From: Escherichia coli
GTDB taxonomy: Bacteria; Pseudomonadota; Gammaproteobacteria; Enterobacterales; Enterobacteriaceae
Strand: one strand, 5' to 3'
Assembly (NCBI RefSeq): GCF_003334785.1
Contig: NZ_QOWV01000007.1
DNA length: 64,000 nucleotides
The notes below the pieces were generated by a model. The model searched no databases. It was not told where the DNA came from and saw nothing but the letters and a program-made list of their open reading frames with translations. Shown piece after piece: positions 44,705 to 59,211 of the stretch (position 1 is the first letter of the stretch; each line of letters starts with the position of its first letter). The translations under genes and the position numbers were made by a program.

Positions 44705-44787
44705 GTCCTCTCCCGCGTGAGAAATACGCTTCCCCGTAAGCGCATGGTAAACTATGCCTTCAAATCGGGCTTATCGCGAGTAAATCT

Positions 44788-45486
44788 ATGAAAATCGGCA
44801 TCATTGGTGCAATGGAAGAAGAAGTTACGCTGCTGCGTGACAAAATCGAAAACCGTCAAACTATCAGTCTCGGCGGTTGCGAAATCTATACCGGCCAACT
44901 GAATGGAACCGAGGTTGCGCTTCTGAAATCGGGCATCGGTAAAGTCGCTGCGGCGCTGGGTGCCACTTTGCTGTTGGAACACTGCAAGCCAGATGTGATT
45001 ATTAACACCGGTTCTGCCGGTGGCCTGGCACCAACGTTGAAAGTGGGCGATATCGTTGTCTCGGACGAAGCACGTTATCACGACGCGGATGTCACGGCAT
45101 TTGGTTATGAATACGGTCAGTTACCAGGCTGTCCGGCAGGCTTTAAAGCTGACGATAAACTGATCGCTGCCGCTGAGGCCTGCATTGCCGAACTGAATCT
45201 TAACGCTGTACGTGGCCTGATTGTTAGCGGCGACGCTTTCATCAACGGTTCTGTTGGTCTGGCGAAAATCCGCCACAACTTCCCACAGGCCATTGCTGTA
45301 GAGATGGAAGCGACGGCAATCGCCCATGTCTGCCACAATTTCAACGTCCCGTTTGTTGTCGTACGCGCCATCTCCGACGTGGCCGATCAACAGTCTCATC
45401 TTAGCTTCGATGAGTTCCTGGCTGTTGCCGCTAAACAGTCCAGCCTGATGGTTGAGTCACTGGTGCAGAAACTTGCACATGGCTAA
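44788..45486 (+). CDS. mtnN: 5'-methylthioadenosine/S-adenosylhomocysteine nucleosidase
   Basis: 232-aa ORF starting [13 protein letters not shown]. Confidence 0.96.
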
Positions 45487-49058: not shown

Positions 49059-50339
49059 ATGAGTAAGTCTGAAAATCTTTACAGCGCAGCGCGCGAGCTG
49101 ATCCCTGGCGGTGTGAACTCCCCTGTTCGCGCCTTTACTGGCGTGGGCGGCACTCCACTGTTTATCGAAAAAGCGGACGGCGCTTATCTGTACGATGTTG
49201 ATGGCAAAGCCTATATCGATTATGTCGGTTCCTGGGGGCCGATGGTGCTGGGCCATAACCATCCGGCAATCCGCAATGCCGTGATTGAAGCCGCCGAGCG
49301 TGGTTTAAGCTTTGGTGCACCAACCGAAATGGAAGTGAAAATGGCGCAACTGGTGACCGAACTGGTCCCGACCATGGATATGGTGCGCATGGTGAACTCC
49401 GGCACTGAAGCGACCATGAGCGCCATCCGCCTGGCCCGTGGTTTTACCGGTCGCGACAAAATTATTAAATTTGAAGGGTGTTACCATGGTCACGCTGACT
49501 GCCTGCTGGTGAAAGCCGGTTCTGGCGCACTCACGTTAGGCCAGCCAAACTCGCCGGGCGTTCCGGCAGATTTCGCCAAACATACCTTAACCTGTACTTA
49601 TAATGATCTGGCTTCTGTACGCGCCGCATTTGAGCAATACCCGCAAGAGATTGCCTGTATTATCGTCGAGCCGGTGGCAGGCAATATGAACTGTGTTCCG
49701 CCGCTGCCAGAGTTCCTGCCAGGTCTGCGCGCGCTGTGCGACGAATTTGGCGCGTTGCTGATCATCGATGAAGTGATGACCGGTTTCCGCGTAGCGCTAG
49801 CTGGCGCACAGGATTATTACGGCGTAGTGCCAGATTTAACCTGCCTCGGCAAAATCATCGGCGGTGGAATGCCGGTAGGCGCATTCGGTGGTCGTCGTGA
49901 TGTAATGGATGCGCTGGCCCCGACGGGTCCGGTCTATCAGGCGGGTACGCTTTCCGGTAACCCGATTGCGATGGCAGCGGGTTTCGCCTGTCTGAATGAA
50001 GTCGCGCAGCCGGGCGTTCACGAAACGCTGGATGAGCTGACAACACGTCTGGCAGAAGGTCTGCTGGAAGCGGCAGAAGAAGCCGGAATTCCGCTGGTCG
50101 TTAACCACGTTGGCGGCATGTTCGGTATTTTCTTTACCGACGCCGAGTCCGTGACGTGCTATCAGGATGTGATGGCCTGTGACGTGGAACGCTTTAAGCG
50201 TTTCTTCCATATGATGCTGGGCGAAGGTGTTTACCTGGCACCGTCAGCGTTTGAAGCGGGCTTTATGTCCGTGGCGCACAGCATGGAAGATATCAATAAC
50301 ACCATCGATGCTGCACGTCGGGTGTTTGCGAAGTTGTGA
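49059..50339 (+). CDS. hemL: Glutamate-1-semialdehyde 2,1-aminomutase
   Basis: 426-aa ORF; class III aminotransferase. Confidence 0.97.
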
Positions 50340-50344
50340 TCCAG

Positions 50345-50480
<136 letters not shown>

Positions 50481-50496
50481 CCGTTATATGGAAAAA

Positions 50497-52479
50497 TTAA
50501 CGGCTCTGCTTTCTCAACAAATAGATAAAATATGGCGCGCCGATAAAGGTTGACAGCAGCCCCGCCGGGATCTGGAATGGAAACAGCACCATCCGCCCAC
50601 ACCAGTCAGCGAACACCAGCAGTAAACCACCCACCAGCGCCGAAATTACGATGTGTGGCATCGTCCGTCGAAAGCCCATCATCCGCGCAATATGCGGTGC
50701 CATTAAACCAACAAAACTCAACGGTCCAATAGTCATCGTCGCGGTCGCCGTCAGGCAAGCCGCTAACAGCAGCAGCGCAATTCGCGTCGGCGTCAGCGCC
50801 ATTCCTACGGCTCGGGCGGTATCACCACCCAGCGGTAAAATGGTCAGCCAGCGGCGGCACAGCGGGGTAATCGCCAGCAAAATCACCATCACAATTCCGG
50901 TGCGCCAGACCTGCGCATCGGTCGCGTTGTAGGTCGAACCGGAAATCCAGGTCAGCACTTGCGCCATTCGCGGGTCACCACTTGCCTGCAACATCATCAA
51001 AAGCATGGTGAACGCGGTGCTTAACGCCATCCCCGCCAGTAACATACGGTGTGGGGAAAATCCACCGCGGCCGGCGGCGATCATAATGATCAACAGCGTC
51101 ACCGCCGCGCCGAGACTGCCTGCAGGTAACAGCCAGCCAAAGGCATTACCCGGCACCAGAAACAGCATCAACACCACGCCAAACGCCGCGCCGGAGCTAA
51201 TCCCCAGCACTTCCGGGCTTGCCATCGGGTTTCCGGTCAGTCGCTGAATAATACAGCCCGCCACCGCCAGCATGACGCCCGCAAACAGCGCCGCCATAAT
51301 TCGCGGCCAGCGCCAGGGCATTAAATCCTCGAGCAACGCCCCGCTCGCCCACGTCCAGCCGTGCGCATCACGACCAAACGACAGCGCCACCACCACAGCC
51401 ATCAACAGCAGCACGCCGCCCGCGAGGGCAAACGCCAGCACATGTTGGCGTTCAGCCGCGACACGATCGTTGACCTTCATATCCGGCGCGCTAATGCTGC
51501 GTAAACGCGGCAACAGCCACAGTAGCAGCGGCGCACCGATCAACGCAGTGACCGAACCGGTGGACACTTCCATCCACACGCGAGTCAGCCAGAGGATGAT
51601 TTGATCGGAAAGCCAGAGGATCAGCGCACCAATCAACGACGCCAGCATCAGTCGTGGCAGCAGACGCCGCGCCCCCAGCATTTTTGCCAGCAGCGGCGCG
51701 AACAACCCGATAAAGCCGATAATCCCCACAGCGTTCACCAGCAGCGCACTGATGACAATCGCCAGCGACAGCGCCGCCAGACGCGCAAGCGACAAGGCCA
51801 GCCCGAGATTGCGCGCCACGCCATCATCAAGCCCCATCAGGGTTAACGGACGAAGTAGCAGCAACGTCAGCATCACACCGCCCAGCAGCTGCGGCCATAA
51901 ACGCTCAACGCCGCCCCAGTCGGTTTGCGTCAGCGTTCCAGTGCTCCACAGAAACATGCTTTGCAGTTGGTCATGATGGAAGATAACCAGTAACTGATTG
52001 ATTGCGCCGCAATAAAGGCTCACTACCAACCCCGCGAGAATCAGCGTTACCGGCGACAGCCGTTTCCCCCACGCGACGCCAAAGACAATTAAGCCAACAA
52101 CACAAGCCCCTGCCAGCGCAGCAAACTGGCTCGCCATCGCACCAGGGATCGCCCAGAGCGTAGTGACGGTAATCCCCAGTTGCGCGCCTGTAGCAACGCC
52201 AAGCGTCGTCGGCTCCGCCAGCGGGTTACGCAGCACTTGCTGAAACAGCACGCCCACCAGCCCCAGACCCGCGCCCACCAGCAGCGAAATCGCCAGACGC
52301 GGCAACAAGCTGTAGTGAAAAATCATCTGCTCGATGACGTCAATATCCGGCGACCAGGCAGCCTGCGCCCACTGGCTACGCGGCAGCGCCTGCGAGAAGT
52401 TCATCCAGGTGAGCGCCGTAGCGACAATCACTAACAGCGCCAGCAATAACGCCGGGAAAAGCGCAATTCGTTTACTCAC
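50497..52479 (-). CDS. fhuB: Ferric hydroxamate ABC transporter permease (duplicated-domain)
   Basis: 660-aa polytopic ORF; 4-bp overlap with fhuD. Confidence 0.96.
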   Translation of the reverse strand: MSKRIALFPALLLALLVIVATALTWMNFSQALPRSQWAQAAWSPDIDVIEQMIFHYSLLPRLAISLLVGAGLGLVGVLFQQVLRNPLAEPTTLGVATGAQLGITVTTLWAIPGAMASQFAALAGACVVGLIVFGVAWGKRLSPVTLILAGLVVSLYCGAINQLLVIFHHDQLQSMFLWSTGTLTQTDWGGVERLWPQLLGGVMLTLLLLRPLTLMGLDDGVARNLGLALSLARLAALSLAIVISALLVNAVGIIGFIGLFAPLLAKMLGARRLLPRLMLASLIGALILWLSDQIILWLTRVWMEVSTGSVTALIGAPLLLWLLPRLRSISAPDMKVNDRVAAERQHVLAFALAGGVLLLMAVVVALSFGRDAHGWTWASGALLEDLMPWRWPRIMAALFAGVMLAVAGCIIQRLTGNPMASPEVLGISSGAAFGVVLMLFLVPGNAFGWLLPAGSLGAAVTLLIIMIAAGRGGFSPHRMLLAGMALSTAFTMLLMMLQASGDPRMAQVLTWISGSTYNATDAQVWRTGIVMVILLAITPLCRRWLTILPLGGDTARAVGMALTPTRIALLLLAACLTATATMTIGPLSFVGLMAPHIARMMGFRRTMPHIVISALVGGLLLVFADWCGRMVLFPFQIPAGLLSTFIGAPYFIYLLRKQSR

Positions 52480-53369
52480 GCCTTACCTCCGATGGCGTTA
52501 TCCAGAACGCGCACAAAGTGCATTGCCGAGAGCGTCGCACCATAAAACCAGACTGCAGGTACGCGCTGAAAGCGTCCGGCGCGGACAAACGGCATGGCCT
52601 GCCACAGCGGCGTTGCCATTAGCGCATCCATGTCTTTGCTGTTGTCGTGATCAAAACAGAGCACATCAACGTCTTTATACGCCGCCAGACGATCGATACT
52701 GACGGCGGTACTGCCCCAGAAGTTGGTTTCCCCTTGCCAGGCATTTGGGATGCCGTACTCATCAAGAATTTCCTGGAACAAGCTGTTTGGACCGAAGACC
52801 AGCATATGGCGCGGATCGATAAGCGTCGTCAGCAATAACGGACGCGCACCACGCTTCACAAAGCGGGGTTTCATGCTGCGGATAAAGTCTTCATATTGCG
52901 CTAAATGCGTTTCCGCTGCGCTTTGCAGGTTAAGTAAATCTGCCATTTCCGTCAGCGATTTACGCGCCATCGCCAACGGCTGTTTGCCGTCACTGAAGTT
53001 AAATCCGCGACCCGGCGCAATACGAGCCAGCATTTCTGGTGAAGGGCCATATCCTGCCGACCAGACCATAAACGATGGTTTCATTTCGGTCAGCAGTTCA
53101 AGGTTAGGTTCTGTGCGCAAACCGACGTCGATCACTGAGTCCGGCAATGGTGGTTCGCTGACCCACAGGCGATAGTTGATGGTATCCGCCACGCCGTAAG
53201 GCACGATGCCGAGCGCCAGCAGTAATTCCACCGGCAACCACTCCAGCGCCACAATACGATTGGGATCAATAGCCGCCGCGTGGGCGGTATTCATCTGCCA
53301 TAACAACGGAGAAAGCGCCATCGCCGTTAACAGTCGACGGCGCGAAATAAGAGGTAAGCCGCTCATCAA
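52476..53369 (-). CDS. fhuD: Ferric hydroxamate periplasmic binding protein
   Basis: ORF with Tat-like signal (RRRLLTAMALSPLL); 4-bp overlap with fhuC. Confidence 0.95.
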   Translation of the reverse strand: MMSGLPLISRRRLLTAMALSPLLWQMNTAHAAAIDPNRIVALEWLPVELLLALGIVPYGVADTINYRLWVSEPPLPDSVIDVGLRTEPNLELLTEMKPSFMVWSAGYGPSPEMLARIAPGRGFNFSDGKQPLAMARKSLTEMADLLNLQSAAETHLAQYEDFIRSMKPRFVKRGARPLLLTTLIDPRHMLVFGPNSLFQEILDEYGIPNAWQGETNFWGSTAVSIDRLAAYKDVDVLCFDHDNSKDMDALMATPLWQAMPFVRAGRFQRVPAVWFYGATLSAMHFVRVLDNAIGGKA

Positions 53370-54163
53370 TAAACAAAACTCACAGGTGCAGCACCCGCCG
53401 GATGCGGCAAAATACCCATCGGGATGCCATAAATCATTTCGAGGGTTTCGCCGCGCATAATTTCCGCAGGCGTTCCCTGAGCAATCATTTCACCGCCGCG
53501 CAGGGCGACCAGATAATCACAGTAGCGTGCCGCCATATTGATATCGTGCAACACGGCAATGACCGTCAGGCCACGCTCCTGACTTAAACGGTGCACCAGC
53601 GACAGCACATCAACCTGGTGGGCGATATCCAGCGCCGAGGTCGGTTCGTCGAGCAACAGACAACGGCTATCCTGCGCCACCAGCATGGCGATCCACGCCC
53701 GCTGACGTTCGCCGCCAGAGAGACTATCGACCAGCCGATGCGCCAGCGGTTTTAAGCCAACCAGCGAGATAGCTTCCTCGACTTTTTCGCGATCTGCCGC
53801 CCCAAAGCGCCCCAGCGCGCCATGCCACGGGTAACGACCAATCGCCACCAGTTCACGCACGGTCATCCCTTCTGCCGGAGGAAGCTGCTGCGGCAAATAA
53901 GCCACTTTGCGGGCAAACGCTTTGCTGCTCCAGCTTTCCAGCGGTTGGGCATCAAGAAGAATCTCCCCTTCCGACGGCGGCTGATGACGGCCAAGCATTT
54001 TGAGCAGAGTGGATTTACCAGAACCGTTGTGACCAATCAGACCGGTCACTTTCCCGGCAGGAAAGGTTAACGACAGCGGATGCAAAAGCGTGCGCCCGGG
54101 CACACGAAAGGAGATATTACGCAGTGCAAAAGTGGTATCGGAATGATTCGTGTATTCCTGCAT
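53366..54163 (-). CDS. fhuC: Ferric hydroxamate ABC transporter ATPase
   Basis: 265 aa from MQEYTNHSDTTF; Walker A GHNGSGKST and LSGGERQRAWIA; ORF-track entry extended 14 codons upstream. Confidence 0.95.
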   Translation of the reverse strand: MQEYTNHSDTTFALRNISFRVPGRTLLHPLSLTFPAGKVTGLIGHNGSGKSTLLKMLGRHQPPSEGEILLDAQPLESWSSKAFARKVAYLPQQLPPAEGMTVRELVAIGRYPWHGALGRFGAADREKVEEAISLVGLKPLAHRLVDSLSGGERQRAWIAMLVAQDSRCLLLDEPTSALDIAHQVDVLSLVHRLSQERGLTVIAVLHDINMAARYCDYLVALRGGEMIAQGTPAEIMRGETLEMIYGIPMGILPHPAGAAPVSFVY

Positions 54164-54213
54164 AACAGCCAACTTGTGAAATGGGCACGGAAATCCGTGC
54201 CCCAAAAGAGAAA

Positions 54214-56457
54214 TTAGAAACGGAAGGTTGCGGTTGCAACGACCTGACGTTCTGCGCCCCAGAAGCAGCCATAAGTGTTAAAGCAGCTGGCGACGTATTC
54301 ACGATCGAACAGGTTGTTAACATGCAGCGCCACGTTGGAGCCAGCCATGCCGACTCGCGCCAGATCATAACGTACTAACGCATCCACGACCGTATAACTT
54401 CCCACTTTAAAGGAGTTAGCCGGATCACCATAACTGGAGCCAGTATAACGACCACCGGTGCCCAGCGTCAGACCTGAAAGCGGACCGTCAAAGAAGGTGT
54501 AGTCAGCCCACAACGAAGCCATGTGTTTTGGCACCTGTGCAGGCGTATTGCCTTTATAGGTAGTATCGGTGGTGTATTCCGCATCGGTGTAAGTATAAGA
54601 ACCGACTACGTTAACACTCGCCGACAGCGCCGCTTTCGCTTCGATTTCTACGCCACGTGCGCGGATCTCGCCACCTTCAACCGAGAAGAAGGAACCCTCA
54701 GGGTCCGCCATCAGGTTGTTGGTTTTAGTGAGATTATACACGGCACCAGTAACTACAATCGGACGATCTTCCGGTACATATTTCACGCCGACTTCATACT
54801 GCTTACCTTTAGACGGTGCGAAAATATTACCATCCTTCCCAACTTGCGAAGAAGGTTCAAACGATTCGCTATAGCTGAAGTAAGGTGTTACACCATTATC
54901 AAACAGGTAGTTAACACCACCACGCCAGGTAAACTGTTTGTCATCACGTTTATCGGTCGTCCCGGCAACGCGGTTAAGAGATTCTTGATCTGCCCAGTCA
55001 TAACGACCGCCTAGGGTGACCAGCACTTTATCCCACTGCGCCTGATCCTGAACATAAACGCCCGTTTGTTTCTGTTTATTCAGAATGCGGTAAGGGCCGG
55101 AGTTTGCCGGATCTTTGGCATTGAAGTCGAAATCGGTATTCACCGGATTGTACAGATTGAGCAGTGGCACAGAGTCGTCGTAACCAAACCAGGCGTTGAT
55201 GTCATTACGCATACGCATAAAGTCGACACCGGTCAGCAGGGTGTGGTCGATATCACCAGTGGCAAACTTGCTCTGCAACTGGGTATCAACGGAGAAGTTT
55301 TGCAGCTTCTCATCATCAACGACGTATTTACGTGCCAGATAATGGCCTTTATCCGCTGGCGCTAATGCCGCACACTGTTTGCTGTAAGCATTCGCCGGAT
55401 CGGAGCAGACGCCGTAACCATAAACGCTGTTTTGCGAGGTTTTGTTTTCAGCAAAGCGCAGGTTCTGACGCACAGTAAAGGTGTCGTTAAATTCGTGATC
55501 GAAGCTGTAGCCGACCATCTTCTCATTACGAGAATAGGTGTTGTTCTTCGCCCCTTCATTAAAGTCTGTCGGCAGACGCTTACCGTTCGGCAGCGGCTCA
55601 ACGGTTCCCTCTTTCGGCAACCAGCCGTAATAACCGGTTTCCGGCTCGTTCTGGAAGTAAGAAAGGAAGGTAAAATTGGTTTTATCATCCGGACGCCAGG
55701 TGAACGCCGGTGCAATAGCATAACGCTGCTCTTCTGACCCTTTCTGCTGGGCATTGGCAGAACGCGCAAGACCGGTCAGGCGATAAGAGTAAACACCGTC
55801 ATCATCCAACGAATCGCTAAAGTCAAAACCAGTCTGGAACAGGCTGTCAGTACCGGCTTTAAACTGAACTTCTTTCAGCGGTTCGGTGGTCGGACGCTTG
55901 CTGACCATATTCAACAGGCCGCCAGGACTGCTTTTACCGTAAAGCACGGAAACCGGGCCACGCATAATTTCAGCGCGTTCCAGCATATACGGGTCAATGA
56001 CCGCATCGTTATAGAAGTTGCCCTGCAACTTCAGGCCATTCAGATAGTTATTCTGGCTTTGGCCTTCTGCCGCAAAGCCGCGAATGATCAGGTGGTCATA
56101 GGTGTTGGATGCGCCACGCGTACCAACAGAGACACCCGGCGTGTAGCTAAGCGCTTCTTTTACCGACTTCGGCTGATGCAGCGCCATCTCTTCGGCGGTC
56201 ACAACAGAAATAGACTGTGGCACTTTTTGAATCGGCGTATCGGTTTTAGTGCCGGTAGCAGACTGTCGCGCCGCAATAGTTGCAGCAGGCCCCCATGCGC
56301 TTTCTTGCGGCGCAGGTGCAGCGGTAACGGTGATAGTGTCTTCTTTCGGTTCAACCGCTGCCTGTGCATAAACAGACATGCCGCTAACCGCTGTGGCTAC
56401 TACAACTGCGATTTTACGCAGTGAGTGTTTTGGCTGAGCAGTTTTGGAACGCGCCAT
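54214..56457 (-). CDS. fhuA: TonB-dependent ferrichrome outer-membrane transporter
   Basis: 747-aa ORF with signal peptide, TonB box DTITVTA, and C-terminal aromatic ...ATFRF. Confidence 0.97.
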   Translation of the reverse strand: MARSKTAQPKHSLRKIAVVVATAVSGMSVYAQAAVEPKEDTITVTAAPAPQESAWGPAATIAARQSATGTKTDTPIQKVPQSISVVTAEEMALHQPKSVKEALSYTPGVSVGTRGASNTYDHLIIRGFAAEGQSQNNYLNGLKLQGNFYNDAVIDPYMLERAEIMRGPVSVLYGKSSPGGLLNMVSKRPTTEPLKEVQFKAGTDSLFQTGFDFSDSLDDDGVYSYRLTGLARSANAQQKGSEEQRYAIAPAFTWRPDDKTNFTFLSYFQNEPETGYYGWLPKEGTVEPLPNGKRLPTDFNEGAKNNTYSRNEKMVGYSFDHEFNDTFTVRQNLRFAENKTSQNSVYGYGVCSDPANAYSKQCAALAPADKGHYLARKYVVDDEKLQNFSVDTQLQSKFATGDIDHTLLTGVDFMRMRNDINAWFGYDDSVPLLNLYNPVNTDFDFNAKDPANSGPYRILNKQKQTGVYVQDQAQWDKVLVTLGGRYDWADQESLNRVAGTTDKRDDKQFTWRGGVNYLFDNGVTPYFSYSESFEPSSQVGKDGNIFAPSKGKQYEVGVKYVPEDRPIVVTGAVYNLTKTNNLMADPEGSFFSVEGGEIRARGVEIEAKAALSASVNVVGSYTYTDAEYTTDTTYKGNTPAQVPKHMASLWADYTFFDGPLSGLTLGTGGRYTGSSYGDPANSFKVGSYTVVDALVRYDLARVGMAGSNVALHVNNLFDREYVASCFNTYGCFWGAERQVVATATFRF

Positions 56458-56477
56458 TGGTATATCTCTGATGTAAA

Positions 56478-56528
56478 GTGAATGATAACGTAAACGAGAA
56501 TGATTATTATAAAGATAAGATAATATTC
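56478..56528 (-). promoter_or_regulatory. fhuA promoter with Fur box
   Basis: Minus strand CTTATCTTTATAATAATCATTCTCGTTTACGTTATCATTC contains GATAAT/ATCATT-type hexamer repeats 20-70 bp upstream of the fhuA start. Confidence 0.6.
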
Positions 56529-56676
56529 GAAACGCTGGCGGGTTCGCAAGCGGTACGCAATCTGAGCGTTCCTGAAGGGTTAATAAACAACCAGATGAAA
56601 AGAAAGGGTTAATATCTTAGATGGGATGTTATTTTACCGGATGGCAACTCGCCATCCGGTATTTCACGCTTAGATG

Positions 56677-59211
56677 TTAATTACTACCAAACATATCCTT
56701 GATCCAACCGGCTACACCGTCGCTGTCTTTCTGCTCTTGCTGAGCAGGTTGCTGTTGCGGCTGTTGCTGCGGCTGAGAAGACTGATCAAACGGATTGCCT
56801 GACGGCTGCTGCTGCATCTCGCTCTGCTGGCACAGCGATTGCGGATCGCTGGTCCAGACCGGCAAGATACGCATGCCACCGCTGCAAACAAAGTTGCCGT
56901 CGTAGTCCACGCCCATATCTGCAATATCTTCTGGCGGAACAAGATTCAGCGGCGTTGGCGTCTGGTTAGCCAGATAACGCTGATAAATCGACATTGCCCC
57001 GCTGGCACCATACAGTTTGGTCGGCTGGTTGTTATCACGGCCGACCCAGGTGATGGTCACCGTGCTGCCGTCAATGCCCGCAAACCAGGTATCTACGTTA
57101 TTGTTGGTAGTCCCTGTTTTCCCTGCCAGATGCAGGTTCGGGTATTTCGCCCCAAGCTGACGACCCGTACCGCGTTGTACCACCTGCTGCATGGTCCATA
57201 GTGTCAGATACGCCGCCTGCGCCGGAACAGCGCGTTCCGCCTGCGGGAAGCTCTGATACAGCACTTTGCCATCTTCCGCGATTACCGAACGCAGCGCAGA
57301 AAGCGGTGCACGGTTACCACCGCTGGCGATGGTCTGGAATGCCTGCGCCACTTCGATTGGCGTTAAGTTCAACGCCCCCAGCAGCATTGCCGGAACCGGA
57401 TGCAACTGATCTTTCGGTACGCCCAGTTTAATCCAGGTCTCCGTAACCGCAGGCAGCCCCAGCGCCATCCCCAGATTTACCGTCGGCACGTTCATCGAAC
57501 GGGTCAACGCATCCACCAGCATCACTCTGCCGCTTTCGCTATAACGACGGTCATCATTCTGCGGTGACCAGACCTGGCCATTCGGCTGACGCAGCGCAAT
57601 TGGCGCATCCGCAATCCACGTATTCAGACGATAGATTTTCGGCTGGCTTAAGGCCGTCAGATAAGTCGCTGGTTTTGCAAGGGAACCAATCGAACGACGC
57701 GCCTGCATCGCACGGTTGTAGCCCGCAAACTGCGGCTCAGAACCTCCGACCATCGCACGAACTTCACCACTAAAGCGGTCGACGACCACAATCGCAGTTT
57801 CAAGATCGCTCAACTTACGCTGTTTCTTCAGTGCCGGAATGCCTTCCACGGCGGCTTTTTCTGCCGCGTCCTGGGCCACCGAGTCAAAGGTAGTGAAGAT
57901 CTTCACGCCGGAGAGATCTTTTACCTTATCGCCCAGTTTTGCCTGCAGCTCCTGACGCACCAGTTGCATAAAGGCTGGCTGAGGAGAGATCACCCCACCG
58001 CGCGGCTGAACCCCCAGCGGACGGGCACTCAACATGTCATAGAGTTCTTGATCAATAATCTGTTGCTGTTGCAGCAGACGCAGCACCAGATTACGTCGCT
58101 CCAGCGCCAGTTTTGGGTTACGCCACGGGTTGTAGATGGACGCCCCTTTCACCATACCGACTAACAGCGCCTGCTGGTCGAGGCTTAGCTCTTCTACCGG
58201 GCGACCAAAGTAATACAAGCTTGCCAGCGGGAAGCCGCGGATTTCGTTGTCGCCGCTCTGACCGAGATACACCTCGTTCATATACAGCTCAAGAATACGG
58301 TCTTTGCTGTAACGCGCGTCCATGATCAGCGCCATGTAAGCTTCGTTCGCTTTACGCCAGTAAGAACGCTCGCTGGAGAGGAACAGGTTTTTCACCAGCT
58401 GTTGCGTCAGCGTACTCGCACCCTGTACCGTGCGTCCGGCGGTCAGGTTTGCCAGCACCGCACGTCCGATTGAGTAGAGACTGATTCCATCATGCTCGTA
58501 AAAATGACGGTCTTCTGTCGCCAGCAAAGTATCCACCAGCAAATCCGGGAAACCACTGCGCGGCACAAACAGACGCTGCTCACCGTTTGGCGAAGAGATC
58601 ATGGTGATCAGACGCGGATCAAGACGGAAGAAACCGAACTGACGGTTGTTCTCCATATTGACGATCGTCGCCAGATGATCGCCATCAAAGGTCAGACGCG
58701 CGCGCACCTGTCCTTCTTTACTGTCCGGGAAATCAAACGGACGGCGAATCATCTCAATGCTGTTGGCCTGCACGGTAAATTCGCCAGGACGGGTCATTTT
58801 CGACACCTGACGATACTGGGTCGCCTCCAGCAGCTTCACCATCTCGTTCTTGCTGATGGTCATGTCTGGCTCAAGATTGACCATTCGGCCATAAACTGCC
58901 GCAGGCAGTTGCCAGACCTTGCCATCAATACGGCTACGAATTTTTTGATCGAGATAAACGCCGTAAATGGCGATCAGCACGGCAAAAACGATAGCCAGTT
59001 TTAGCAGTAGCCATAGCCAGCCGCGTTTGCCACGAGGCTTACGCCCTTTGCCTTTGCCCTTACCTTTGCGCGGCATCGGTTCTTCATCCTCATAGTCATC
59101 ATAATCGTCGTAATCATCGTCATCTTCGTAACGACGACGGCTTACCTTTTGTTTGACCGGACGCGTCGGTTTCCCTTTGCGTCCAATTGGCTCGCGGTCA
59201 TTCCCGGCCAT
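56677..59211 (-). CDS. mrcB: Penicillin-binding protein 1B (bifunctional transglycosylase/transpeptidase)
   Basis: 844 aa from [14 protein letters not shown]; second in-frame Met at [11 protein letters not shown] (short isoform); acidic [15 protein letters not shown] then basic tail before the TM helix. Confidence 0.96.

Follow-up and report, generated by a model that had tools for sequence, protein, structure and literature searches.

A known Fur operator at the fhuACDB promoter in Escherichia coli: core site, conserved flanking block and overlapping gene junctions

The region at positions 56478–56528 of a 64,000-nt stretch of DNA (the window, that is, the whole stretch that was analysed) is, with a probability of about 95%, the operator for Fur at the fhuACDB promoter. 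We infer that it acts by occlusion of the promoter, and the exact transcription start and translational coupling within the operon are likewise deduced. Fur repression of fhuACDB has long been established, and prediction, gel shift and ChIP-exo mapping of this exact site have all been published. The sole mildly novel aspect of the region is an invariant block, TTACGTTATCATTCAC, located 3′ of the core Fur site.

The host DNA of the window is E. coli. The mrcB-fhuA spacer together with the first fhuA codons is identical to K-12 MG1655 at 330 of 330 positions, and in the fhu region as a whole 4 of 6342 positions deviate from MG1655, none of them in the promoter. A 351-bp query around the region matched 5,422 of 5,426 complete E. 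coli genomes, in which it is annotated as mrcB and fhuA. K-12 coordinates were calculated as 167484 + (56457 - window position). According to the open reading frame (ORF) listing and translation, the minus strand carries fhuA, fhuC, fhuD and fhuB in this order, with mrcB upstream and hemL convergent downstream. RefSeq annotation was taken from K-12 and from a strain that matches the 351-bp query without any difference:

54214–56457, minus strand: fhuA, ferrichrome outer-membrane transporter, 747 aa (ORF and RefSeq annotation)
53366–54163, minus strand: fhuC, ABC transporter ATPase, 265 aa (ORF and RefSeq)
52476–53366, minus strand: fhuD, periplasmic binding protein, 296 aa (RefSeq)
50497–52479, minus strand: fhuB, permease, 660 aa, GTG start (RefSeq)

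With the fhuA ATG at 56457, the region 56478–56528 is situated 21–71 nt upstream of fhuA; on the minus strand it reads ...GAATATTATCTTATCTTTATAATAATCATTCTCGTTTACGTTATCATTCAC....

Two structured elements lie at the borders of the operon. In the intergenic region where fhuB and hemL converge, positions 50348–50468 contain palindromes of the REP/BIME type with a sub-threshold Rfam match to naRNA4, a REP-derived RNA (46.6 bits versus a gathering score of 59.5). On the mrcB side, a perfect hairpin with a 10-bp stem, ACCGGATGGCgagtTGCCATCCGGT (56636–56660, minus strand), is positioned 17 nt past the mrcB stop codon and is kept among typical E. coli alleles. It is presumably a 3′-end structure of mrcB and, having no T-run, was not called by a consensus terminator scan. 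The sole match of that scan was a weak hairpin on the wrong strand in the fhuA coding region, which was disregarded.

Identification and conservation of the Fur operator

The first-pass annotation, made from the sequence alone, had described hexamer repeats of the GATAAT/ATCATT type overlapping the likely fhuA promoter. Counting supports this description. The 51 bp of the region (24% G+C) contain seven hexamers that fit GATAAT or its complement ATTATC in at least five of six positions, and they form the only such cluster in 64 kb: seven hexamers per 51 bp were reached exclusively by stretches starting at 56474–56484, the mean of the window being 0.48. When the 51 bp were shuffled at constant composition, seven hexamers were reached in just 0.05% of trials (P = 0.0005), and the repeats therefore exceed the expectation from base composition. 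The upstream end of the stretch and the operator elements are as follows:

56514–56524, plus strand: hexamers GATAAG and GATAAT, 5 bp apart, upstream end of the hexamer-rich stretch
56493–56511, minus strand: core Fur operator TATAATAATCATTCTCGTT, 19-bp site of the 9-1-9 type, 20.2 bits, centre 56502 = K-12 167439
56487–56517, minus strand: 31-bp Fur site cluster, three matrix matches in 6-bp register

The core operator was scored with a 19-bp symmetric log-odds matrix of 21.9 bits information. The fhuA site was excluded from the training set, which consisted of 18 other proven K-12 Fur sites (footprinted or gel-shifted). Their K-12 positions were taken from Tables 3 and 4 of Chen et al. 2007 (PMC2189734) and their sequences from NC_000913.3, and the coordinate shift between genome versions was checked against gene starts at nine of the 18 sites. 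All extracted 19-mers fit the expected AATGATAATnATTATCATT pattern, and leave-one-out scoring of the 18 sites gave 8.6–27.2 bits with a median of about 21.

The centre of TATAATAATCATTCTCGTT is located 45 nt upstream of the fhuA ATG. In the matrix scan that the first-pass annotation had named as the decisive check of its Fur box, the site scored 20.2 bits, which is rank 1 in 64 kb and mid-range among the leave-one-out scores of proven sites. About 0.003 matches of at least this score are expected by chance per window. One of 200 dinucleotide shuffles of the window reached it, as did one of 2000 shuffles of the A+T-rich spacer. The three members of the cluster, centred at 56496, 56502 and 56508, scored 1.5, 20.2 and 6.5 bits, respectively, both flanking sites being weak.

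Two further matrix matches in the window deserve mention. The second-best, ATTGAGAATCATTCTGAAT (34342–34360, centre 34351 = K-12 189590), scored 16.5 bits with 0.04 such matches expected by chance. Located in the divergent map/tff-rpsB spacer, 84 nt upstream of map, it coincides with published Fur ChIP-exo peaks at 189588–189600 in MG1655 and W3110 and is therefore probably a genuine Fur site of a housekeeping gene that has been catalogued before. The third-best match (44787–44805, centre 44796, 13.3 bits), in the first codons of mtn (MKIGII), has no ChIP-exo support; with 0.27 matches expected it was set aside as probably due to chance.

Conservation of the operator was examined by an ortholog scan with one genome per species, which yielded 78 FhuA loci, 77 of them usable, from roughly two dozen named Enterobacteriaceae genera as well as Hafnia and Ewingella. 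In all 77 loci, the best matrix match within 350 bp upstream of fhuA was the orthologous site with at least 12.8 bits. It reached at least 15 bits in 73 of the 77 and was positioned at -43 to -49 from the start codon, again in 73 of the 77. Its sequence was YATAATAATMATTMTCGTT in most loci. The best Fur matrix match in the rest of each 11-kb locus mostly scored 3–13 bits. As anchoring on the best match could bias the comparison, 71 promoters were realigned with the ATG as anchor. The mean majority fraction in this alignment was 0.96 for the Fur 19-mer and 0.95 for the next 15 bp, compared to 0.80 for the remaining leader, 0.85 for the -35 to -13 region and 0.68 further upstream.

Within E. coli, seven divergent alleles are invariant over 56533–56475 except for positions 56518 and 56517, and the upstream spacer diverges. 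In two of the seven, a fimbrial gene cluster replaces mrcB as the upstream neighbour of fhuA. More broadly, homology of the spacer ends upstream of the fhuA promoter in about 566 of the 5,422 E. coli genomes. Inspection of two such genomes (L017 and L022) revealed fimbrial genes instead of mrcB directly upstream of fhuA; in L022 these encode an usher and a fimbrial protein. When both were compared over 56536–56680, homology resumed at about 56613 in one and at 56536 in the other. Promoter and Fur box were intact in both.

The same site is known from published work. Chen et al. 2007 (NAR 35:6762; PMC2189734) reported a fhuA site of 19.5 bits centred at K-12 167439, which corresponds to window position 56502 and is thus the identical site. 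Their Table 4 lists the fhuA cluster as three walkers over 31 bp, an oligonucleotide carrying the site was shifted in gels by 150 nM Fur, and the weakest member of their 11-site Fur model had 11.1 bits. Fur ChIP-exo peaks assigned to fhuACDB were found at 167456–167466 in MG1655 and 167456–167468 in W3110, in both strains under iron-replete conditions only; the MG1655 peak is flagged as also present in Seo et al. (2014) (Gao et al. 2023, Dataset 2, PMC10164565). The summit translates to window 56475–56485 and is displaced from the matrix centre by about 20–22 bp in the promoter-distal direction. The four narrow peaks at gpmA, sufA, ydiE and efeU were offset in the same direction by +9 to +16, compared to +22 at fhuA. 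Further ChIP-exo peaks flanking the promoter or inside fhuA (K-12 167218–254, 167641–672 and 169031–043) coincided with no strong motif, the best matrix scores within 25 bp being 7.2, -9.8 and -6.0 bits, respectively. Our literature search returned no DNase footprint of Fur on the fhuA promoter; the direct evidence consists of the oligonucleotide gel shift and ChIP-exo.

Expression data point in the same direction. Deletion of fur raised fhuA by log2 +1.09 in MG1655 and +5.0 in W3110, and fhuCDB by log2 +3.1–3.3 in W3110 (PMC10164565); the derepression of fhuA in MG1655 is only about 2-fold in one dataset. A fhuA promoter-lacZ fusion was repressed by Fur (Beauchene et al. 2015, PMC4676285). 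The ‘fhuA promoter’ expression system of PMC3621691 is based on a Vibrio cholerae promoter and is irrelevant to the E. coli site. Taken together, matrix score, chance controls, position at the promoter, the 77 orthologous loci, and published binding and expression agree on the Fur box proposed by the first-pass annotation.

Promoter geometry and the conserved block 3′ of the operator

The elements discussed in this section are:

56506–56511, minus strand: -10 hexamer TATAAT of the fhuA promoter, inside the Fur operator (read from the sequence)
56499 (K-12 167442), minus strand: putative transcription start, back-calculated from the HypT footprint numbering of PMC6397515
56520–56549, minus strand: second promoter-like pair, TTGCGA - 18 nt - TATTAT (consensus scan)
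56478–56493, minus strand: invariant block TTACGTTATCATTCAC, 3′ of the Fur 19-mer, mean majority fraction 0.95 in 71 promoters
56596–56610, minus strand: counterpart AACCCTTTCTTTTCA of the distal HypT footprint, at -111 to -97, sequence match to Salmonella AACCCTTCCTTTTCA

On the fhuA promoter of Salmonella Typhimurium, HypT footprints cover TTACGTTATCATTCA at +7 to +21 and AACCCTTCCTTTTCA at -111 to -97 (Jo et al. 2019, PNAS 116:3740; PMC6397515). The same authors describe the Salmonella and E. coli fhu promoters as nearly identical, and their start-site reference was taken from the Huerta & Collado-Vides 2003 compilation. The proximal sequence is the same in E. coli, where TTACGTTATCATTCA is found unchanged at 56493–56479, and the distal one differs by one base. 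Both footprint sequences are present in the window with exact spacing, which places +1 at 56499 and makes TATAAT (56511–56506) the -10 hexamer. This hexamer is conserved and reads CATAAT in most other genera. A literature search for primary start-site data on fhuA was negative.

Relative to this start, the Fur 19-mer would span -12 to +7. This appears to be a classic geometry for blocking RNA polymerase, with a start site that is second-hand, via the Salmonella paper. When iron is sufficient, Fe2+-Fur dimers would bind the 19-bp inverted repeat 56511–56493, probably with further, weaker Fur contacts in 6-bp register on both sides. Because the Fur site covers the -10 hexamer (56511–56506) and the transcription start (about 56499), RNA polymerase would be excluded and the four-gene operon switched off. 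When iron is scarce, Fur would leave the DNA and fhuACDB would be transcribed. The hexamers TTGCGA and TATTAT (56549–56520) are both conserved across genera, and fhuA may possess two overlapping promoters. If the second pair is used, the operator would come to lie just downstream of the start, at about +2 to +21, and repression would still be expected, with a slightly altered geometry.

The 33-bp block 56510–56478, near-invariant in roughly two dozen genera, extends beyond the 19-mer. It might constitute a larger, composite operator, with the iron regulator Fur and the hypochlorite regulator HypT sharing the DNA or competing for it, or it might include a non-canonical second Fur dimer site; we put this forward tentatively. 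A rival and likewise doubtful explanation considers the conserved element mainly an operator for HypT, a HOCl-sensing LysR-type regulator, or a composite of Fur and HypT sites, with TTACGTTATCATTCAC kept for HypT. This explanation draws on the Salmonella footprints, which cover TTACGTTATCATTCA and the distal site with its E. coli counterpart at 56596–56610 (PMC6397515), and on the fact that TTACGTTATCATTCAC varies as little as the Fur 19-mer (0.95 versus 0.96) and yet has no score above zero from the single-dimer Fur matrix. HypT binding was shown on the Salmonella promoter (PMC6397515), and the E. coli sites are putative counterparts by sequence. HypT control would add to Fur control and not replace it, as the 19-mer is a strong Fur site that is bound by Fur. 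The block is also open to Fur itself: its GTTATC keeps exactly to the 6-bp register of the core hexamers, and the summit of the Fur ChIP-exo peak (56475–56485) falls over the block, so that an extension of the Fur operator is equally possible. Finally, the distal site is far less conserved and, within E. coli, is altered in alleles with the fimbrial cluster.

Two other explanations fare much worse. The block occupies +7 to +22 of the predicted transcript and is invariant, as might be expected if it acted at the RNA level within the 5′ untranslated region of fhuA, for instance as an sRNA target or a structure. This is improbable: the leader folds with -7.4 kcal/mol and a z-score of 0.02, no better than shuffles, positions 50000–57000 gave no Rfam family match, and the remaining leader is less conserved (0.80). 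With an ordinary fold and no Rfam match, the RNA element was rejected. It is more improbable still that the hexamer stretch is simply A+T-rich promoter DNA (-10 box, UP-like) that resembles a Fur box by chance, with iron control being indirect. The low G+C content of the 51 bp (24%) and the core TATAAT -10 box, itself similar to a Fur hexamer, would suit such an explanation. In contrast, shuffled sequences attained the hexamer count in just 0.05% of cases and the matrix score in one of 2000 (spacer), the part of the site beyond the -10 box, CATTCTCGTT, does not vary between genera, and the published gel shift and ChIP-exo data represent direct Fur binding.

Gene junctions and the fhuA-fhuC spacer

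According to the first-pass annotation, the fhuC-fhuD and fhuD-fhuB junctions overlap by 4 bp each. The second overlap is correct: at ...GGAGGTAAGGCGTGAGT the GTG start of fhuB and the TGA stop of fhuD overlap by 4 nt (GTGA, 52476–52479). The first had to be revised to 1 nt, since at ...TATTGATGAGC the TGA stop of fhuC and the ATG start of fhuD given by RefSeq have a single nucleotide in common (TGATG, 53366). An overlap of 4 nt at this junction requires the in-frame TTG at 53369, one codon upstream, as start, as in the mechanical ORF list. This TTG is not conserved in other genera, and many loci have CTG or TTA there. Of 75 loci, 69 have the 1-nt form T(G/A)ATG at fhuC/fhuD and 73 the 4-nt form RTGA at fhuD/fhuB. 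The genes fhuA and fhuC do not overlap and are separated by a gap of 50 nt.

The two overlapping starts differ in their ribosome binding sites. fhuD has no Shine-Dalgarno sequence, its best anti-Shine-Dalgarno pairing being -2.2 kcal/mol, and fhuB is preceded by a strong GGAGG with a pairing of -10.8 kcal/mol. As fhuD is without a ribosome binding site of its own, its translation would most likely start by termination-reinitiation at UGAUG. Translation of fhuB would start at the GUGA overlap with the help of its strong Shine-Dalgarno sequence. The conserved overlaps and the missing Shine-Dalgarno sequence of fhuD make translational coupling of fhuCDB a reasonable assumption; coupling need not be obligatory at fhuB because this gene keeps a strong Shine-Dalgarno sequence. 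Our literature search found no experiment on fhuD/fhuB translational coupling.

The spacer between fhuA and fhuC contains a conserved structure:

54183–54202, minus strand: hairpin GGGGCACGGauuuCCGUGCCC in the 50-nt fhuA-fhuC spacer, -19.9 kcal/mol, z -4.2

Seven pairs of this hairpin are kept among 66 distinct orthologous spacers (98–100% paired), including one compensatory change (A-U to G-C or vice versa), and a U-run often follows. It matched no Rfam family. We consider it a candidate for a partial terminator or a 3′-end stabiliser. In a fur mutant, fhuA mRNA was about 6-fold above fhuC mRNA (tables of Gao et al. 2023, PMC10164565), an excess that would fit either role.

Comparison with known systems

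As a discovery, the operator carries little weight. It serves as a calibration point, a true operator having been recognisable from raw sequence. Besides revising the fhuC/fhuD overlap from 4 nt to 1 nt, the analysis yields two modest leads: the block that adjoins the Fur box on its 3′ side and is equally conserved, and the conserved fhuA-fhuC hairpin.

The site shows no material difference from the K-12 fhuA Fur site of Chen et al. 2007. Sequence and position are the same, both analyses give three sites over 31 bp, and the scores are 20.2 bits here and 19.5 bits there. The classical Fur-repressed siderophore-receptor promoters (fepA-fes, cirA, fecA, fhuF and iucA) share the 9-1-9 operator built from GATAAT hexamers with overlaps in 6-bp register. 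In these promoters the operator lies over the -10 box and the start, as it probably does at fhuA, and mediates repression under iron-replete conditions. Compared to iucA and fhuF, whose footprints are long and include many sites, fhuA has a compact cluster of one strong and two weak sites within 31 bp. Furthermore, the fhuA core departs from the Fur consensus in a conserved manner, with CGTT at the 3′ end and TAT/CAT where AAT would be expected.

The gene junctions resemble those of other ABC-importer operons with ATGA or TGATG junctions. TGATG at fhuC/fhuD and GTGA at fhuD/fhuB are typical of this group and are conserved across Enterobacteriaceae. Compared to such overlap operons, fhuACDB is distinguished by the strong Shine-Dalgarno sequence of fhuB's own and by the 50-nt fhuA-fhuC spacer with its conserved hairpin.
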